Assembly (NCBI RefSeq): GCF_054482595.1
Contig: NZ_CM137008.1
Direction: 5' to 3' (one strand)
Length of the DNA: 64,000 nt
Every line of letters begins with the position of its first letter. Within the stretch, counting starts at the first letter, position 1. A program made the position numbers and the translations under genes. Under the pieces are notes generated by a model, which saw only the letters and a program-made list of their open reading frames with translations, was not told where the DNA came from and did not search any database. Shown here piece by piece: positions 19,686 through 41,395 of the stretch.

Positions 19686-20621
19686 ATGTCGCAAAATCAA
19701 GAAATTAGCAAGAAAGAACAATACAACCTGAACAAATTACAAAAACGCCTGCGTCGTAACGTGGGCGAAGCCATTGCTGACTTCAATATGATTGAAGAAG
19801 GCGATCGCATCATGGTTTGCCTCTCCGGGGGTAAAGACAGCTATACCATGCTGGAGATTCTGCGCAATTTGCAGCAAAGCGCGCCAATCAATTTTTCGCT
19901 GGTGGCTGTTAACCTCGATCAAAAGCAACCGGGCTTCCCGGAACACGTTCTGCCCGAGTATCTTGAAAAGCTGGGCGTTGAGTACAAGATTGTTGAAGAG
20001 AACACTTACGGTATCGTGAAAGAGAAGATTCCAGAGGGCAAAACCACTTGCTCACTGTGTTCTCGGCTACGTCGCGGTATCCTTTATCGCACCGCAACGG
20101 AACTGGGGGCGACGAAGATCGCGTTGGGCCACCATCGTGACGATATCCTGCAAACGTTGTTCTTAAATATGTTCTACGGCGGCAAGATGAAAGGTATGCC
20201 TCCGAAACTGATGAGCGATGATGGCAAACATATTGTTATTCGTCCGCTGGCCTACTGCCGCGAGAAAGATATTCAGCGATTTGCCGATGCAAAAGCGTTC
20301 CCGATTATTCCGTGCAACCTGTGCGGTTCACAGCCTAACCTGCAACGTCAGGTGATTGCTGACATGTTGCGTGACTGGGATAAACGTTATCCAGGGCGTA
20401 TCGAGACGATGTTCAGCGCGATGCAGAATGTGGTGCCGTCACATCTGTGCGATACCAACCTGTTCGATTTCAAAGGCATCACCCACGGTTCTGAAGTGGT
20501 TAACGGGGGTGATCTGGCGTTTGATCGCGAAGAGATCCCACTACAACCGGCGGGCTGGCAGCCAGAAGAAGATGAAAATCAGTTGGATGAGTTACGGCTG
20601 AATGTGGTTGAAGTGAAATAA
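19686..20621 (+). CDS. ttcA: tRNA 2-thiocytidine(32) synthetase
   Basis: 311 aa; PP-loop SGGKDS; CxxC cysteine pairs. Confidence 0.95.
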
Positions 20622-25984: not shown

Positions 25985-26893
25985 TTAACTTTGCAGATAG
26001 CCGCATTCTCGCCGGAATTGCGTGATTAATGACGCGGTCAGTGGTGTCTGGCGACTATCACGCCGCTGAATCAAATAATAGGCCGCTTTCGGTAAAATTT
26101 CGCTAACCGGCAACATCACCAGCCCCTGTCCGTGCAAGGGATCGCAGCCCATTTCTTCAGGCAGTATGCTGAGAAAATCGCTTTTTGCCACCAGACTGAT
26201 ACAGGCTGAGAACGTCTCGCAGACTACACCGACCTGTGGCGTTTGCGCCTGATCGTCAAGCAATTCACTCAACTGTTTGTAGTAGCTGCCGTGTGGCGTC
26301 GGCATTGTCCAGCTGTAATCCAGTAACTGTTTGATCGAACGGGCACCAATGGCGGGGTGTCCCGGGCGGCAAAAGATCGCGAATTGCTTTTCCAGTAATT
26401 TCTCAAAAGTAAATTCGTGGTCGTACGATCCCTGATAATAGGTATTGATGGTGAAATCCAATTCTCCCTGACGCAATTCATTAATCATCGACACCAGTTG
26501 CCCTTCCATAATGCGTACTTTTACCTGCGGATGCTGCTGATGAAAACGAGATATGACAGCTGGCATCAGACTGCGGGAAATACTGGCCCCCATGCCGATA
26601 TTAATCTGCCCTGCCAGTTGCCCTTGTCGTTGGCGAATATCCTCTTGGGCTGCGCGCAGCTCTTCAAGAATAAGACTGGCGTGCTGATAAAAACTTTCAC
26701 CGGCATCAGTTAACGTCACGCCTTTACTACGGCGAAAAAAGAGTTGCGCCGCTAACCCTTCTTCCAGCTCCTGAATAGATTTACTCAGTGCCGGTTGCGA
26801 CATATTCAACATTCGGCTCGCTCCGCGAATGCTGCCCTGACGAGCCACTTCAACAAAAGCCCGAATTTGATGAATTTTTACCTGAAAAGCCAT
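25985..26893 (-). CDS. abgR: LysR-family regulator of abg operon
   Basis: 302 aa; N-terminal HTH (QGSIRGASRMLNMSQPALSKSIQELE); divergent from abgA. Confidence 0.9.
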   Translation of the reverse strand: MAFQVKIHQIRAFVEVARQGSIRGASRMLNMSQPALSKSIQELEEGLAAQLFFRRSKGVTLTDAGESFYQHASLILEELRAAQEDIRQRQGQLAGQINIGMGASISRSLMPAVISRFHQQHPQVKVRIMEGQLVSMINELRQGELDFTINTYYQGSYDHEFTFEKLLEKQFAIFCRPGHPAIGARSIKQLLDYSWTMPTPHGSYYKQLSELLDDQAQTPQVGVVCETFSACISLVAKSDFLSILPEEMGCDPLHGQGLVMLPVSEILPKAAYYLIQRRDSRQTPLTASLITQFRRECGYLQS

Positions 26894-27068
26894 GACGCCA
26901 CCGATAACCGTTATTTATCAGACCAAAGAAACTGGCATCTACTTTAATGCAGATGATTGTGTCAGGGTAATTTATGAACGGTTAAAACTGTGAAAAATCA
27001 GTTAGTGATAAGTAAAAACTATCGCTACGTGAACCGGGTCACACTTTTTACTGATGACGGGAAAGGTT

Positions 27069-28379
27069 ATGGAGTATTTGAATCAATTTGTTAATTCGCT
27101 TGCCCCAAAATTATCGCACTGGCGACGTGATTTTCATCACTATGCAGAGTCTGGCTGGGTGGAATTCCGCACTGCCACCCTTGTTGCGGAAGAATTGCAG
27201 CAGCTCGGCTATTCACTGGCGCTGGGCCGCGAAGTAGTTAATGAAAGTAGCCGGATGGGACTACCTGATGAACTCACTCTACAACGCGAATTCGAGCGCG
27301 CTCGTCAACAGGGTGCGCTAGCACAATGGATTGCGGCTTTTGAAGGTGGTTTCACTGGTATCGTCGCCACCCTGGATACCGGTCGCCCCGGTCCGGTGAT
27401 GGCTTTCCGTGTCGATATGGACGCGCTGGATCTCAGTGAAGAGCAGGATGTCAGCCATCGCCCCTACCGCGACGGTTTTGTGTCATGTAACGCCGGAATG
27501 ATGCATGCCTGTGGTCATGATGGGCATACCGCCATTGGGCTTGGGCTGGCGCATACCCTTAAACAGTTCGAGTCCGGACTACATGGCATCATCAAACTGA
27601 TTTTTCAACCTGCAGAAGAAGGTACGCGTGGCGCGCGGGCGATGGTCGATGCAGGTGTAGTGGATGATGTTGATTATTTTACTGCCGTGCACATTGGCAC
27701 TGGCGTACCTGCGGGCACCGTGGTGTGCGGCAGTGATAATTTTATGGCAACCACCAAATTTGACGCGCACTTCACCGGGACCGCCGCTCACGCAGGCGCA
27801 AAACCAGAAGACGGTCACAATGCCTTGTTGGCGGCAGCACAAGCAACTCTTGCACTGCATGCAATCGCCCCGCACAGCGAAGGCGCTTCCAGAGTAAACG
27901 TGGGCGTTATGCAGGCAGGAAGCGGTCGTAATGTTGTTCCTGCCTCGGCGTTGCTGAAAGTGGAAACACGCGGGGCCAGCGACGTCATTAATCAATATGT
28001 TTTTGACCGTGCACAACAAGCGATTCAGGGCGCAGCAACCATGTATGGTGTCGGCGTTGAAATTCGTCTGATGGGTGCAGCTACCGCCAGTTCTCCTTCG
28101 CCGCAATGGGTCGCATGGTTGCAAAGTCAGGCGGCTCAGGTCGCGAGGGTCAATCAGGCCATTGAACGTGTCGAAGCGCCTGCGGGTTCCGAAGATGCCA
28201 CATTAATGATGGCCCGCGTGCAGCAACATCAAGGGCAAGCCTCCTACATGGTGTTTGGCACACAGCTGGCGGCAGGTCATCACAACGAAAAATTCGATTT
28301 TGACGAGCAGGTTCTCGCTATTGCCGTCGAAACGCTGGCGCGCACCGCGCTCAATTTTCCCTGGACGCGAGGTATCTGA
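27069..28379 (+). CDS. abgA: p-Aminobenzoyl-glutamate hydrolase subunit A (M20 family)
   Basis: ORF track 27054..28379; start at MEYLNQ gives 436 aa. Confidence 0.9.
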   Translation: MEYLNQFVNSLAPKLSHWRRDFHHYAESGWVEFRTATLVAEELQQLGYSLALGREVVNESSRMGLPDELTLQREFERARQQGALAQWIAAFEGGFTGIVATLDTGRPGPVMAFRVDMDALDLSEEQDVSHRPYRDGFVSCNAGMMHACGHDGHTAIGLGLAHTLKQFESGLHGIIKLIFQPAEEGTRGARAMVDAGVVDDVDYFTAVHIGTGVPAGTVVCGSDNFMATTKFDAHFTGTAAHAGAKPEDGHNALLAAAQATLALHAIAPHSEGASRVNVGVMQAGSGRNVVPASALLKVETRGASDVINQYVFDRAQQAIQGAATMYGVGVEIRLMGAATASSPSPQWVAWLQSQAAQVARVNQAIERVEAPAGSEDATLMMARVQQHQGQASYMVFGTQLAAGHHNEKFDFDEQVLAIAVETLARTALNFPWTRGI

Positions 28380-29824
28380 TGCAGGAAATCTATCGTTTTA
28401 TCGACGATGCGATTGAAGCCGATCGCCAACGTTATACCGATATTGCCGATCAAATCTTGGATCATCCAGAAACACGTTTTGAAGAGTTCTGGTCAGCGGA
28501 GCATCTGGCTTCGGCGCTGGAATCTGCAGGCTTCACCGTTACCCGCAACGTAGGCAATATCCCAAATGCCTTTATTGCTTCGTTTGGTCAAGGCAAACCG
28601 GTTATCGCCCTGCTGGGAGAATATGACGCCCTGGCAGGTTTAAGTCAGCAAGCAGGTTGCGCGCAACCTACATCCGCGACGCCCGGTGAAAATGGTCACG
28701 GTTGCGGACACAATTTGCTGGGAACCGCCGCCTTTGCCGCTGCAATAACCGTCAAGAAATGGCTGGAACAATATGGGCAAGGCGGCACGGTGCGCTTTTA
28801 TGGTTGTCCTGGCGAAGAAGGCGGCTCGGGTAAAACGTTCATGGTTCGCGAGGGGGTATTTGATGATGTGGATGCGGCACTCACCTGGCACCCGGAAGCC
28901 TTTGCCGGTATGTTCAATACCCGCACGCTGGCAAACATTCAGGCATCATGGCGCTTTAAAGGGATCGCAGCACATGCCGCGAATTCCCCTCATTTGGGAC
29001 GCAGCGCCCTTGATGCCGTAACGTTGATGACCACTGGCACCAACTTCCTCAACGAACATATTATTGAAAAAGCGCGCGTACACTATGCCATCACAAATAG
29101 CGGCGGGATCTCGCCCAACGTGGTCCAGGCGCAGGCAGAAGTGCTTTATCTTATCCGCGCCCCCGAAATGACCGACGTGCAGCATATTTATGATCGGGTC
29201 GCCAAAATCGCCGAAGGTGCGGCATTGATGACCGAAACCACGGTTGAATGCCGCTTCGACAAAGCCTGTTCCAGTTATCTCCCGAATCGCACCTTAGAAA
29301 ATGCCATGTACCAGGCCCTATCCCATTTTGGTACCCCGGAATGGAACTCCGAAGAACTGGCTTTTGCGAGACAAATTCAGGCTACGCTCACCTCCAACGA
29401 TCGGCAAAACAGTCTGAATAATATCGCCGCAACCGGTGGCGAAAACGGCAAGGTTTTTGCACTACGTCATCGTGAAACGGTACTGGCGAATGAGGTCGCT
29501 CCATATGCCGCCACCGATAACGTGCTTGCGGCATCGACTGATGTCGGCGACGTCAGTTGGAAACTGCCTGTTGCCCAGTGTTTCAGCCCCTGTTTTGCCG
29601 TCGGTACACCGCTACATACGTGGCAACTGGTTAGCCAGGGGCGAACATCTATTGCTCATAAAGGAATGCTGCTGGCGGCGAAAACTATGGCAGCAACCAC
29701 AGTCAATCTCTTCATTGATTCAGGGCTATTGCAAGAATGCCAACAAGAGCATCAGCAAGTTACGGACACGCAACCGTATCACTGCCCTATCCCGAAAAAC
29801 GTGACACCGTCACCTTTAAAATAA
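28379..29824 (+). CDS. abgB: p-Aminobenzoyl-glutamate hydrolase subunit B (M20 family)
   Basis: 481 aa; start overlaps abgA stop. Confidence 0.9.
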   Translation: MQEIYRFIDDAIEADRQRYTDIADQILDHPETRFEEFWSAEHLASALESAGFTVTRNVGNIPNAFIASFGQGKPVIALLGEYDALAGLSQQAGCAQPTSATPGENGHGCGHNLLGTAAFAAAITVKKWLEQYGQGGTVRFYGCPGEEGGSGKTFMVREGVFDDVDAALTWHPEAFAGMFNTRTLANIQASWRFKGIAAHAANSPHLGRSALDAVTLMTTGTNFLNEHIIEKARVHYAITNSGGISPNVVQAQAEVLYLIRAPEMTDVQHIYDRVAKIAEGAALMTETTVECRFDKACSSYLPNRTLENAMYQALSHFGTPEWNSEELAFARQIQATLTSNDRQNSLNNIAATGGENGKVFALRHRETVLANEVAPYAATDNVLAASTDVGDVSWKLPVAQCFSPCFAVGTPLHTWQLVSQGRTSIAHKGMLLAAKTMAATTVNLFIDSGLLQECQQEHQQVTDTQPYHCPIPKNVTPSPLK

Positions 29825-37262: not shown

Positions 37263-37298
37263 AAATGCAAACAACTTCCATCAAAAAAGTGACACAGG
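37263..37298. repeat. 36-bp conserved motif, copy A (mppA upstream)
   Basis: aaATGCAAACAACTTCCatCAAAAAAGTGAcACAgGA; second copy at 41271..41307 differs at about 3 positions. Confidence 0.6.
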
Positions 37299-37541
37299 AA
37301 GCATAAAATGTTTTATGTATCAATATATTAAATCAGATTTAGTGTAAATAATCGACGCCAAAATGCGGTAAAGCACATAGAACACCGAACACTACATTCA
37401 GGCTTCGCACGTTCAAACCAGTTTTCGGTATCATAATCAGCATCTGTCGCCATTGTACGAAGAATAAAAAATAACCAAAACGTTGATAGGAACTGAGAAT
37501 ACGTTAAGAGAGAAATTAAATTAATGTATCAGCAAGTAGTG

Positions 37542-38441
37542 CTAAACAGCACCTTTATACTTCAGCCTATCTATAAATAATGAGAATGCCGAGCCAGCAT
37601 GTCGACGGTGTGGATAGTACAGGTGATAACCGGGTAAATCTGGTGTGAATTTATCCAAAACACGTATCAGTTTTTTTTCTTTAATAGCCCGCTCAACCTG
37701 ATCATAAGGTAGATACGCCAATCCATGCCCATCAATTGCAGCATCAATGATCAGGTCTATCGTATTCAGTAAAAGCTGACCTTCCATGCGAACACGAACT
37801 TCACGTCCACCGCGTATTAATCTCCAGCGATTTGCTGTACCCGATGTGGGAAGATACAAATTAATTGCCTGATGATCTATTAATTGTGACACTGACGTTG
37901 GAACACTTCGGCGAGAAAAATAATCCGGTGAGCCAACAATAGCCATTGGTATATCTGGCCCGATTCGAATGGCGATCATATCTTTATCCATCTCCCCACC
38001 CAGACGGACGCCTGCATCAAAACGTTCAGAAACGACATCGGTCAAACCATAATCAATGGTGAGCTGAATATCAATTTCAGGATGCGATTTCAGGAATGTG
38101 CGCATTGCTGGTAACAATATCGTTTTTGCTGCATGTTCTACAGTAGTAATACGTATTGTCCCGGATGGGCGGTTCTGCAGCTCGCTCAGGGATGCCAGGG
38201 CTGAATCTATGTCATGCAACATAGGGCCAAGAACAGACAAAAGATGCTCGCCCGCTTCAGTTGGAACAACGCTGCGCGTGGTTCGCGTCAGAAGCCGCAA
38301 TCCCAATCGTTCTTCTATACGACGCACTATCTGGCTTAAAGCTGACTGCGCCATGCTCAGGCGGGCTGCTGCACGAGTGAAGCTACGCTCCTCTGCAACG
38401 ACGACAAACGCCATCAGATCAGCGATTTCTTCACGCTTCAT
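37542..38441 (-). CDS. pgrR: LysR-family regulator PgrR
   Basis: 299 aa; N-terminal HTH; divergent from ycjY. Confidence 0.85.
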   Translation of the reverse strand: MKREEIADLMAFVVVAEERSFTRAAARLSMAQSALSQIVRRIEERLGLRLLTRTTRSVVPTEAGEHLLSVLGPMLHDIDSALASLSELQNRPSGTIRITTVEHAAKTILLPAMRTFLKSHPEIDIQLTIDYGLTDVVSERFDAGVRLGGEMDKDMIAIRIGPDIPMAIVGSPDYFSRRSVPTSVSQLIDHQAINLYLPTSGTANRWRLIRGGREVRVRMEGQLLLNTIDLIIDAAIDGHGLAYLPYDQVERAIKEKKLIRVLDKFTPDLPGYHLYYPHRRHAGSAFSLFIDRLKYKGAV

Positions 38442-38578
38442 TCAGTATCTCCATGCAATCTATTAATCATTTAAATGATAGGTCTAATCATGATTTTGGG
38501 TCTAATCAACTTAATGATCAATATCTATAGTGATATCACCAACCGTTAAAACGAACCGACAACTCCATGAGGAACGGA

Positions 38579-39499
38579 ATGATGAATAATAAAGTCAGCT
38601 TCACTAACAGCAATAATCCAACCATCTCTTTGTCTGCAGTGATCTATTTCCCTCCAAAATTTGATGAAACCCGTCAGTATCAGGCAATTGTGGTATCTCA
38701 CCCAGGTGGGGGCGTTAAAGAACAAACGGCCGGAACCTATGCCAAAAAACTGGCGGAAAAGGGATTTGTCACTATTGCTTATGACGCATCTTATCAAGGT
38801 GAAAGTGGCGGCGAGCCGCGTCAGTTAGAAAACCCATACATTCGTACTGAAGACATCAGTGCCGTGATTGATTACCTGACAACGCTTTCTTATGTCGACA
38901 ATACCCGAATTGGTGCGATGGGAATTTGTGCCGGTGCAGGATATACAGCCAATGCTGCAATTCAGGATCGCCGCATCAAGGCCATCGGTACCGTTAGTGC
39001 GGTCAATATTGGTTCGATGTTCCGTAATGGTTGGGAAAACAATGTGAAATCTATTGATGCCCTGCCATACGTTGAAGCGGGTTCAAACGCCCGAACCAGC
39101 GATATTAGCAGCGGAGAATATGCCGTTATGCCACTGGCACCAATGAAGGAGTCCGATGCGCCGAACGAAGAACTGCGTCAGGCCTGGGAGTATTACCACA
39201 CCCCTCGCGCGCAGTATCCAACAGCACCGGGTTACGCTACTTTGCGCAGCCTTAACCAGATTATTACCTATGATGCTTACCATATGGCGGAAGTGTACCT
39301 GACTCAGCCGATGCAGATTGTGGCGGGCAGCCAGGCAGGGAGCAAATGGATGAGTGACGACCTGTACGATCGGGCATCAAGCCAGGATAAACGCTATCAC
39401 ATTGTTGAAGGCGCAAACCATATGGATCTTTATGACGGCAAAGCCTATGTGGCTGAAGCAATTTCAGTATTAGCTCCGTTCTTTGAGGAAACTCTGTAA
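38579..39499 (+). CDS. ycjY: Alpha/beta hydrolase with Cys nucleophile motif (dienelactone-hydrolase-like)
   Basis: ORF track 38567..39499; start at MMNNK (GAGG 6 nt upstream) gives 306 aa; GICAG nucleophile-elbow motif. Confidence 0.85.
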   Translation: MMNNKVSFTNSNNPTISLSAVIYFPPKFDETRQYQAIVVSHPGGGVKEQTAGTYAKKLAEKGFVTIAYDASYQGESGGEPRQLENPYIRTEDISAVIDYLTTLSYVDNTRIGAMGICAGAGYTANAAIQDRRIKAIGTVSAVNIGSMFRNGWENNVKSIDALPYVEAGSNARTSDISSGEYAVMPLAPMKESDAPNEELRQAWEYYHTPRAQYPTAPGYATLRSLNQIITYDAYHMAEVYLTQPMQIVAGSQAGSKWMSDDLYDRASSQDKRYHIVEGANHMDLYDGKAYVAEAISVLAPFFEETL

Positions 39500-40431
39500 T
39501 GAAACATATTCAAATCCGCAATAGTGATATGGCCTGGCATATTGCTGCCAATATTCAGTTTCCACCAAATTTTGATGAGTCAAAACAGTATCCGGCGATT
39601 ATCAGCGTCCATCCTTTTGGCAGTTGTAAGGAGCAGACGTCTGGCAATATCTATGGCAAAGCATTGGCTGAAAAAGGCTATCTCGTTCTCGCTTATGACG
39701 CCAGTTTCCAGGGAGAATCTGGTGGGGAGCCTCGCTGGATAGAAGATCCGACACAGCGCGTAGAGGATATTAGCCGTGTTATCGATTATGCAGTAACTCT
39801 GCCATATGTTAATGCTGAACGTATTGGCGTGCTGGGAGTGTGTGGGGGTGGTGGCTATGCCATTAATGCCGCGCTGACAGAAAAACGAATTAAAGCAGTA
39901 GTGAGTATTACGGGTGTTAATATCGGGCGTCTTTTTCGGGAAGGTTTCAGCAATTACGATCCGATTGGCGCATTGAATGCAATGGCGTCGCAACGAACCA
40001 AAGAGGCTCGTGGTGGAGAATTACAGATCAACGAATTACTTCCCGCCAGCCTGGATGCAGCAAAATCCCATGGACTGACCGAACGCGATGTTTATGAAGC
40101 AACTGACTACTATAAAACACCACGCGGGCAACAACCGGGAGGTGCGACAAAAATGTTGTTCTCACATGCACAGAAAACGCTGGCCTGGGATGCCTTCGCA
40201 TTTACTGAAGTGTTACTGACTCAGCCGGTGATGGTAGTAGTTGGTGAAAAAGTCGGTGCCTTCGGTGCTTATCGTGATGGACTGGAAGTCTATGGCCGGG
40301 CGATGGTTTCGCAGGATCGTCAGTTAGTTTCATTACCCGATTTCTCACATTATGAACTGTATGACAAACCGGAAGCAGTTCAGGAGACGCTGGAAAAAGT
40401 TATTCCTTTTTTCAACACCCATCTGGGATAA
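39499..40431 (+). CDS. ymjD: Second alpha/beta hydrolase, paralog of ycjY (full-length counterpart of K-12 remnant ymjD)
   Basis: 310 aa; alignable with YcjY along its length (shared FPP.FDE..QY, LAYDAS.QGESGGEPR, VIDY); GVCGG motif; start overlaps ycjY stop. Confidence 0.7.
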   Translation: MKHIQIRNSDMAWHIAANIQFPPNFDESKQYPAIISVHPFGSCKEQTSGNIYGKALAEKGYLVLAYDASFQGESGGEPRWIEDPTQRVEDISRVIDYAVTLPYVNAERIGVLGVCGGGGYAINAALTEKRIKAVVSITGVNIGRLFREGFSNYDPIGALNAMASQRTKEARGGELQINELLPASLDAAKSHGLTERDVYEATDYYKTPRGQQPGGATKMLFSHAQKTLAWDAFAFTEVLLTQPVMVVVGEKVGAFGAYRDGLEVYGRAMVSQDRQLVSLPDFSHYELYDKPEAVQETLEKVIPFFNTHLG

Positions 40432-40448
40432 GTTTCATGAGAAATATT

Positions 40449-41087
40449 ATGAAAAATGTACTGATTCTTGGTGCTGGCGGTCAGATAGCCCGCCATGTGA
40501 TTAATCAACTGGCAGATAAACAAACCATTAAACAAACTTTATTTGCCCGTCAGCCAGCAAAAATCCACAAACCCTATCCAACTAATAGCAAGATTATTAT
40601 GGGAGATGTACTGAATCATGCAGCACTGAAGCAGGCCATGCAGGGACAGGACGTTGTGTATGCCAACCTTACGGGGGAAGATTTAGATATTCAGGCAAAT
40701 TCAGTGATCGCTGCGATGAAAGCCTGTGATGTTAAACGTCTGATCTTTGTTCTTTCCCTCGGTATTTATGATGAAGTTCCAGGAAAATTTGGCGAATGGA
40801 ATAATGCAGTTATTGGTGAGCCCCTAAAACCATTCCGCAGGGCTGCGGATGCAATTGAGGCTTCTGGACTGGAATATACAATTCTTCGCCCTGCCTGGCT
40901 GACTGATGAAGATATTATTGATTATGAGCTTACCTCACGCAATGAACCATTCAAAGGTACGATCGTATCACGTAAGAGTGTCGCAGCATTAATCACAGAT
41001 ATCATCGATAAACCTGAGAAACACATTGGTGATAATATAGGTATCAATCAACCCGTGACTGATGGTGACAAGCCATTATTCATTTAA
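40449..41087 (+). CDS. ymjC: NAD(P)-binding Rossmann-fold protein (NmrA/atypical SDR-like), intact
   Basis: ORF track 40437..41087; MKNVLILGAGGQIARH N-terminal dinucleotide-binding motif; 212 aa from this start. Confidence 0.7.
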   Translation: MKNVLILGAGGQIARHVINQLADKQTIKQTLFARQPAKIHKPYPTNSKIIMGDVLNHAALKQAMQGQDVVYANLTGEDLDIQANSVIAAMKACDVKRLIFVLSLGIYDEVPGKFGEWNNAVIGEPLKPFRRAADAIEASGLEYTILRPAWLTDEDIIDYELTSRNEPFKGTIVSRKSVAALITDIIDKPEKHIGDNIGINQPVTDGDKPLFI

Positions 41088-41270
41088 ATCAATTACATAG
41101 TTACCATCGTAATGTACTATGTGCAGTACGATTTATTAAACTTATTAAGGTGAACTGATCAATCCGATGCGATTAACATGTGTAGAACCAGTAAGAATAA
41201 AATACGCCATGTATATAACATTACGACTTACATCTAAGTCAGCATAATTCTAATATCTGCACATCAATAA

Positions 41271-41307
41271 AAATGCAAACAACTTCCGGCAAAAAAGTGA
41301 TACAAGA
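41271..41307. repeat. 36-bp conserved motif, copy B (mpaA upstream)
   Basis: aaATGCAAACAACTTCCggCAAAAAAGTGAtACAaGA; about 90-125 nt upstream of the mpaA start. Confidence 0.6.
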
Positions 41308-41395
41308 TCGATGACATAGCGTTGAAGAAAAGGATTTGATAATCCGCAAAATTTGCACAACACTGCCTGTAATACTTCCTGAACCAGAGACGATC

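Follow-up and report, generated by a model that had tools for sequence, protein, structure and literature searches.

YcjY of Escherichia coli (PDB 5XB6) and PA2218 of Pseudomonas aeruginosa (PDB 2HDW) are proteins of solved structure for which a literature search returned no functional or activity paper (searched as YcjY, 5XB6, and PA2218); papers on olaquindox and on PhoPQ carry ycjY in tables only. Dienelactone hydrolases of the ClcD type (PF01738) have the common alpha/beta-hydrolase fold, with a Cys in a G-x-C-x-G nucleophile elbow. DcsB (7D78) and GrgF (6LZH) are alpha/beta hydrolases of fungal polyketide pathways that use a Ser nucleophile (GMSFG in DcsB). UilS, a urea-induced N-acyl-homoserine lactonase of Serratia marcescens, was formerly annotated as a dienelactone hydrolase and is experimentally supported as a lactonase, in a paper that names no catalytic residues (PMC11633161). 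Here we analyzed two tandem genes, A and B, in a 64,000-nt stretch of DNA (the window) from contig NZ_CM137008.1 of RefSeq assembly GCF_054482595.1. The region of genes A and B is 100% identical over 3.9 kb to E. coli strain KSC207, and the window is E. coli chromosome.

The best overall explanation, which we hold with moderate confidence, is that A and B are a cap-bearing pair of cysteine hydrolase-fold proteins of the YcjY/PA2218 family (COG1073), encoded in a mobile and regulated cassette. Gene A was already known, and its structure is solved; gene B is an annotated yet unstudied paralog. The single elements of the locus were known or annotated. What is added here is the relationship of B to a remnant in strain K-12, the noncanonical acid, and the mobile cassette of a LysR-type regulator gene with A and B, which is a modest advance.

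Relatives of A and B

The two genes, as annotated here, are as follows.

38579-39499, plus strand: gene A (ycjY), 306 amino acids; Cys117 (38927-38929) in GICAG and His281 (39419-39421) in GANHMDLYD
39499-40431, plus strand: gene B, 310 amino acids; Cys115 (39841-39843) in GVCGG, His284 (40348-40350) in DFSHYELYD, and Glu250 as candidate third residue

Both open reading frames (ORFs) are as the initial annotation of this DNA had described them, and the two Cys codons, TGT in each gene, lie in the GICAG and GVCGG motifs that it had named. RefSeq places the start of the 306-amino-acid form of A at 38579, with an AGGA Shine-Dalgarno sequence 5 nt upstream of the ATG; a longer ORF runs from 38567. 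The TAA of gene A (39497-39499) shares its last base with the ATG of gene B (39499-39501), which verifies the one-base overlap reported before. The product of gene A matched the crystal structure entry 5XB6 ("Uncharacterized protein YcjY") with an E value of 4e-204 and 4 substitutions. Judged by such sequence comparisons, gene A is ycjY, and gene B is the full-length counterpart of a gene that K-12 retains as the remnant ymjD; the short ORF left in the B region of K-12 occupies the place of ymjD.

BLASTP aligned A and B end to end, with 124/299 identities (41%) and an E value of 5e-70, in agreement with the earlier claim that the two are paralogs along their whole length. Two of the shared segments listed in support of that claim were found in both proteins, namely FPPKFDETRQY in A with FPPNFDESKQY in B, and VIDY. 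The third had been given with a leading Leu; it starts with Ile in A, so that the segment reads (I/L)AYDAS(Y/F)QGESGGEPR across the pair.

Homology of A and B to YcjY and PA2218 is full length. Both proteins also carry the invariant positions of this COG1073-type family (B numbering): the K-E-Q loop, the D-x4-G-x-S-x-G-x-P-R segment with D67, S74, and R79, then D90, the Cys, R130, R166, Y204-Y205, the His, and Y288. Since all of these are kept in both paralogs, neither A nor B has the look of a decayed copy. With 4844 cluster representatives at E values up to 1e-3, the family is large; it is strikingly conserved, into fungi as well, and it represents a Cys variant of the fold without the standard acid. 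Compared with YcjY, B is a separate and old lineage: its identity to A is 41%, whereas orthologs of B from Serratia, Klebsiella, Mesorhizobium, Afipia, Agrobacterium, Sphingobium, Brevundimonas, and the myxobacterium Labilithrix match it at 78 to 86%. It also has GVCGGGG rather than GICAGAG, and Glu rather than Ser two residues before the canonical acid position.

The initial annotation had likened the two proteins to dienelactone hydrolases. At the level of the superfamily this comparison stands, because the fold and the Cys are shared; at the level of the family it does not. Pfam DLH matches (E values of 5.9e-8 and 3e-7) covered only residues ~30 to 139, the N-terminal half, and were outscored by Hydrolase_4 and Peptidase_S15 in A and by three other families in B. 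Of the features of PF01738, we found the Cys nucleophile but neither dienelactone hydrolase structural neighbors nor the compact fold of ~235 amino acids; the nearest folds to B were YcjY, PA2218, DcsB, and GrgF, the last two with only 19 to 20% identity and a different genomic context. Because the DLH matches are partial and no better than those to other families, the canonical acid is missing, and the nearest folds lie elsewhere, we conclude that A and B are not dienelactone hydrolases in the family sense. Dienelactone hydrolase operons place a reductase gene after the hydrolase gene, as the window does, and we treat this as an analogy only. When A and B were searched against NCBIfam, no model reached its own cutoff. 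The best match was the UilS lactonase model NF047920 (84.2 bits for A and 75.3 bits for B, against a cutoff of 400); this match was full length for B, and neither protein is a member.

The elbow cysteine and the acid position

The initial annotation had also proposed that Cys takes the place of the nucleophilic Ser, and structure models, alignments, and conservation were all consistent with this. An AlphaFold2 model of B built with 74 homologs had a predicted local distance difference test (pLDDT) score of 96.4 and a predicted template modeling (pTM) score of 0.94. In this model, Cys115 lies between strand 104-114 and helix 116-127, which is the nucleophile elbow, and His284 directly follows strand 274-283, the last strand. 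In the A half of a linked A-B model, Cys117 falls between strand 106-116 and helix 118-129, and the loop that joins strand 271-276 to helix 283-286 contains His281. In alignments made with a family profile, the Cys fell on the G-x-S-x-G Ser of 7QJM, PET46 (8B4U), and 9PJB, and a single-sequence search aligned the Cys of A with the corresponding Ser of DcsB (7D78).

Conservation was assessed in 74 full-length sequences, each representing a cluster at 50% identity. At the nucleophile position, 66 of them have Cys, 2 have Ser, and 5 have Gly or Ala, and the His after the last strand is kept in 67. In 34 A/B pairs (33 gene pairs from other loci and the two halves of a two-domain protein, P0157), the motif was G-[IV]-C-A-G in A and G-x-C-G-G in B without exception (34/34). 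A and B thus have what defines the alpha/beta-hydrolase superfamily at these positions, a Cys on the small-x-Nu-x-small strand-turn-helix elbow that follows strand beta5 and a His after the last strand. These data support the conclusion that A and B are true paralogs with the alpha/beta-hydrolase fold. Because elbow position, alignment with Ser, and family conservation agree, the assignment of Cys117 in A and Cys115 in B as the predicted nucleophile is well supported. Three of the family representatives (P0133, P0150, and P0153) have an extra N-terminal domain of 200 to 260 amino acids together with apparent signal peptides.

Of the catalytic triad that the initial annotation had expected, the Cys and the His are in place and the canonical acid is absent. 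Asp206 of PET46 (in HGDSD, at position G+3 after strand beta7) aligned with Ala in A and Val in B, and this position is Ala in 54/74 relatives, so that the superfamily's acid is missing from it. At G+1, two residues earlier, Ser is found in 30 of the 74 representatives, Glu in 16, and Asp in 13; in orthologs of A this residue is Ser, and in B it is Glu. With no acid at the canonical position, the third residue would be either noncanonical (the candidates being Glu250 in B and Ser251 in A) or absent, and a putative Cys-His pair is the safest description.

The missing acid, together with the Gly or Ala that a few family members have in place of the nucleophile, might also be taken to mean that the Cys is noncatalytic and that A and B are binding or sensor proteins or pseudoenzymes. 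However, Cys and His are conserved together in ~89% of the representatives and in all A/B pairs, and they occupy the exact catalytic positions of the fold. We consider a noncatalytic Cys very improbable.

In the mechanism that we propose, the elbow Cys (Cys117 in A, Cys115 in B) would be the nucleophile and would be activated by the His (His281 in A, His284 in B), roles to which their positions and conservation point. The attack would give a thioester acyl-enzyme, which would then be hydrolyzed or possibly passed to another acceptor. The active site would use a Cys-His dyad or would add a third residue two positions before the canonical acid (Glu in B, Ser in A). For A and B together, the substrate would be a small ester, lactone, or thioester, and the product may go to a reductase. 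The two conserved arginines suggest that the substrate carries an anionic group. Other pointers to function are the remote match to UilS, structural neighbors whose chemistry forms or cleaves ester and lactone linkages, and the reductase partner.

A different outcome would follow if a hydroxyl or an amine took over the acyl group from the thioester, as happens in polyhydroxyalkanoate (PHA) synthase and BAAT. A and B would then be acyltransferases or synthases, and YcjY could be a polymerase of short-chain poly-hydroxybutyrate (cPHB). In the alpha/beta-hydrolase fold, a Cys nucleophile is characteristic of transferases, PhaC and human BAAT among them. By fold match, the closest characterized structural neighbors are DcsB, deposited as a thioesterase, and GrgF; DcsB forms macrolactones, and GrgF is a chain-fusing enzyme. 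B has a weak Pfam match to BAAT_C. The GXCXG motif of ycjY has been noted before: Rychlewski et al. are reported to have used it to choose ycjY, ysgA, and yghX as candidate cPHB polymerases (PMC3709699). However, A and B share with PhaC only the G-x-C-x-G box: they are 306 to 310 amino acids long, lack the PhaC-type N-terminal domain, and have no PhaC-type or other PHA synthase match in Pfam. No CoA ligase, carrier protein, or thiolase accompanies the cassette in the loci examined. Dienelactone hydrolase demonstrates that a Cys in this fold can simply hydrolyze. We regard a transferase role as unlikely.

The LysR-A-B cassette

Upstream of A lies a divergent regulator gene, and downstream of B lies a gene for an atypical short-chain dehydrogenase/reductase (SDR). 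These genes, with the sites and the flanking gene needed below, are as follows.

37542-38441, minus strand: pgrR (ycjZ), LysR-type regulator gene, divergent to the hydrolase operon
40449-41087, plus strand: NmrA-like atypical SDR gene, 212 amino acids (structure 3QVO), accessory member of the cassette
38466-38479: palindrome ATCATTTAAATGAT of the form ATCA-N6-TGAT, candidate PgrR operator; second copy at 38505-38518
37263-37299, plus strand: left copy of a 37-nt direct repeat, upstream of mppA
41271-41307, plus strand: right copy of the 37-nt direct repeat, upstream of mpaA
41396-42124: mpaA, with the right repeat copy upstream of it

A scan of one genome per species gave 31 further distinct loci. 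The divergent LysR gene, A, and B occur in this order in 27 of the 31, and A adjoins B in 29, which range over Alpha- and Gammaproteobacteria and include one Streptomyces locus. LysR-A-B adjacency was also found at the L044 and L045 loci, in Sphingobium and in Labilithrix (Myxococcota). The Sphingobium cassette lies beside integrase, transposase, and conjugation-type genes, and the gene order in Labilithrix is LysR-A-B-NmrA-flavodoxin. In Serratia and Afipia, among other taxa, the equivalent position is occupied by orthologs of pgrR that are 75 to 87% identical. Among E. coli, Serratia, and Afipia, protein identities are 75 to 84% for LysR, 80 to 93% for A, 80 to 84% for B, and 66 to 79% for the SDR. 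From E. coli to Alphaproteobacteria, the cassette proteins are 65 to 93% identical, and A and B still reach 70 to 81% in Myxococcota.

The SDR gene is an accessory, present in ~8/33 loci. It lies 3′ of B in loci of E. coli, Serratia marcescens, Pseudocitrobacter, Afipia, Hyphomicrobium, Rhizobium, and Labilithrix. The only downstream partners seen to recur among the loci were this NmrA-like SDR and a flavodoxin-like protein, the latter in three loci. A box of the same ATCA-N6-TGAT form as the palindrome in the window is also present in the spacer between the LysR gene and A in Serratia, Afipia, Agrobacterium, Microvirga, Ancylobacter, and Sphingobium loci, and the palindrome is probably the PgrR operator.

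In E. coli, the two copies of the 37-nt repeat, 89% identical and spaced 4008 nt apart, bracket the block of pgrR, ycjY, B, and the SDR gene. A search with the right copy and its flank (41262-41320) hit a median of two places per E. coli genome, which shows that this is no dispersed element. The repeat could have arisen as an insertion scar or as an att-like duplication. From the conserved gene order, the identity between distant hosts, the palindrome that the block brings with it, the mppA and mpaA flanks found in Escherichia only, and the flanking repeat, we read LysR-A-B(-SDR) as a horizontally mobile cassette that was inserted into the mppA-mpaA spacer in Escherichia. The unit of a LysR gene divergent to A-B, often followed by the NmrA-like NAD(P) reductase gene, is self-contained, with a conserved operator-like palindrome of its own, and it appears to have spread horizontally through Proteobacteria and Myxococcota.

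Two observations concern the same spacer. In E. coli NH-21 (L048, 5068-5765), the whole cassette is gone and an IS1 element lies between mppA and mpaA; we considered this strain as an empty site and rejected it, because the IS1 makes it uninformative about the ancestral junction. In some strains, RefSeq annotates a 75-nt "epoxyqueuosine reductase QueH" fragment in the mppA-pgrR spacer (L046, 311-385, corresponding to about 37300-37450 of the window).

The name PgrR and existing annotations place ycjY elsewhere, with mppA, mpaA, and ycjG in a functional group for recycling of murein tripeptides, which would make A and B peptidoglycan-peptide hydrolases. The site of the genes in E. coli, between mppA and mpaA, agrees with this, and the PgrR regulon has been listed as ycjY-ymjDC-mpaA, ycjG, and others (PMC5934670). 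Overexpression of ycjY causes filamentation (PMC3614548), and YcjY has been tabulated under "(putative) peptidoglycan degradation" (PMC12711010). However, mppA, mpaA, and ycjG adjoin the cassette in Escherichia only, and 0 of ~35 non-Escherichia loci have any of the three within 6 kb. The cassette, its regulator, and the operator-like palindrome travel together, and the direct repeat brackets the E. coli cassette as would be expected of an insertion into the mppA-mpaA spacer. B-type relatives of 55 to 60% identity occur in fungi, organisms without murein, which favors a small molecule of common occurrence over a murein-specific substrate. We give a murein-recycling function little credence. 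Because the cassette is read as a mobile insertion into that spacer, the place in peptidoglycan recycling that publications give to PgrR and ycjY may reflect a secondary wiring specific to E. coli. A more elaborate account, in which A and B form an obligate heteromer with a Cys-His pair and no canonical acid, act on a widespread small anionic ester or lactone, pass the product to the reductase, and belong to a mobile cassette with its own LysR regulator and operator that was misread as a peptidoglycan-recycling operon because of its landing site between mppA and mpaA, seems to us rather unlikely as a whole.

These considerations suggest that the inducer of PgrR and the substrate of the enzymes should be sought outside peptidoglycan fragments.

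Loss of B in E. coli and the relationship between A and B

In MG1655 and many other E. coli strains, homology to the window ends at 39553 and resumes at ~40421, so that 39554-40420 is missing. The segment deleted in K-12 was present in 1282/5426 complete E. coli genomes. The SDR gene is also cut short in K-12 (ymjC); homology resumes at 41266, and the truncation ends 4 nt before the right copy of the repeat. In O157:H7, B is annotated as frameshifted, with one extra G at ~39844 (locus L046) in the G-run that encodes GVCGGGG. In contrast to B, ycjY was intact in every genome looked at, with pairwise dN/dS values of 0.07 to 0.38 that rest on small counts. We conclude that B is being lost in E. 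coli by deletion and by frameshift while A stays intact.

Several observations bear on whether A and B act together. The TAATG stop/start coupling is kept in enteric loci, and the coding strand has no terminator-like site between A and B. An AlphaFold2 model of the linked construct A-(GGGGS)6-B, computed with 14 paired rows, had a pTM score of 0.86; in our interpretation, this value for two domains of ~300 residues would imply that their mutual arrangement is predicted with confidence. Fusions involving such domains were also found. P0157 is a natural 632-amino-acid protein made of two YcjY-like domains. In Bosea sp. WAO (L027, 4918-6963), A and B form one ORF of 681 amino acids in which the stop codon of A is missing and a 57-nt spacer is in frame. 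The AFDB entry A0A6N7CMT5 joins a B domain to an NAD(P)-binding domain. We infer, less firmly than we do the nucleophile, that A and B probably act together, either as a heterodimer or in consecutive steps; a physical A:B partnership is possible but doubtful.

A and B could instead be independent, noninteracting enzymes that have different substrates or catalyze consecutive reactions of one pathway and are adjacent only because they are coregulated. This is an alternative that we take seriously without favoring it. The paralogs are ~40% identical to each other and 70 to 93% identical to their own orthologs, which indicates an ancient divergence, and E. coli lineages retain A after the loss of B. 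Two loci (L033 and L035) have B and the LysR gene without an adjacent A, and in Stenotrophomonas A and B are ~4 kb apart. Against independence stand the adjacency and order of A and B in nearly all of the scanned loci and in Sphingobium and Labilithrix, the stop/start overlap in enteric bacteria, the pTM score of the linked construct, and the fused two-domain relatives.

Several points weigh against the explanation that we prefer, that of a cysteine hydrolase-fold pair in a mobile cassette. We know of no activity shown for any member of the family, and the UilS lactonase is only a remote match. The absence of the canonical acid means that "triad" may be the wrong word for the predicted active site. 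In about three-fourths of E. coli genomes, ycjY is intact while B is missing, so that a heteromer is not required for A. The pTM score of 0.86, obtained from 14 sequences and one construct, could reflect a homodimer-type interface common to paralogs. The idea that P0157 descends from a fused A-B pair was rejected: its own domains are 45% identical to each other and only 27 to 35% identical to A or B, which makes it an independent duplication. The read-through in Bosea could be a real fusion or an assembly error. Finally, the reductase is absent from most loci.

For YcjY, a protein with a solved structure and no known function, three results ease functional testing: the natural unit comprises the regulator, A, B, and in some loci a reductase; K-12 holds only a broken cassette; and the link to murein genes is specific to Escherichia. 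Together they suggest that K-12 is the wrong strain in which to look for phenotypes.

Two other features of the window were noted. By the annotation of KSC207, ttcA (about 19700-20600) lies directly beside uspF (about 19100) and ompN. In K-12, the Rac prophage is next to ttcA, and the strain of the window appears to be without it. The window also contains a second layout of the same kind as that of pgrR, A, and B: abgR (25985-26893, minus strand), abgA (27054-28379, plus strand), and abgB (28379-29824, plus strand) likewise combine a divergent LysR-type gene with two tandem paralogous hydrolase genes that overlap by one base at stop and start. RefSeq names AbgA and AbgB as subunits of one enzyme. 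They are M20 metallopeptidases, and since their fold is unrelated to that of A and B, the likeness is an analogy of architecture only.

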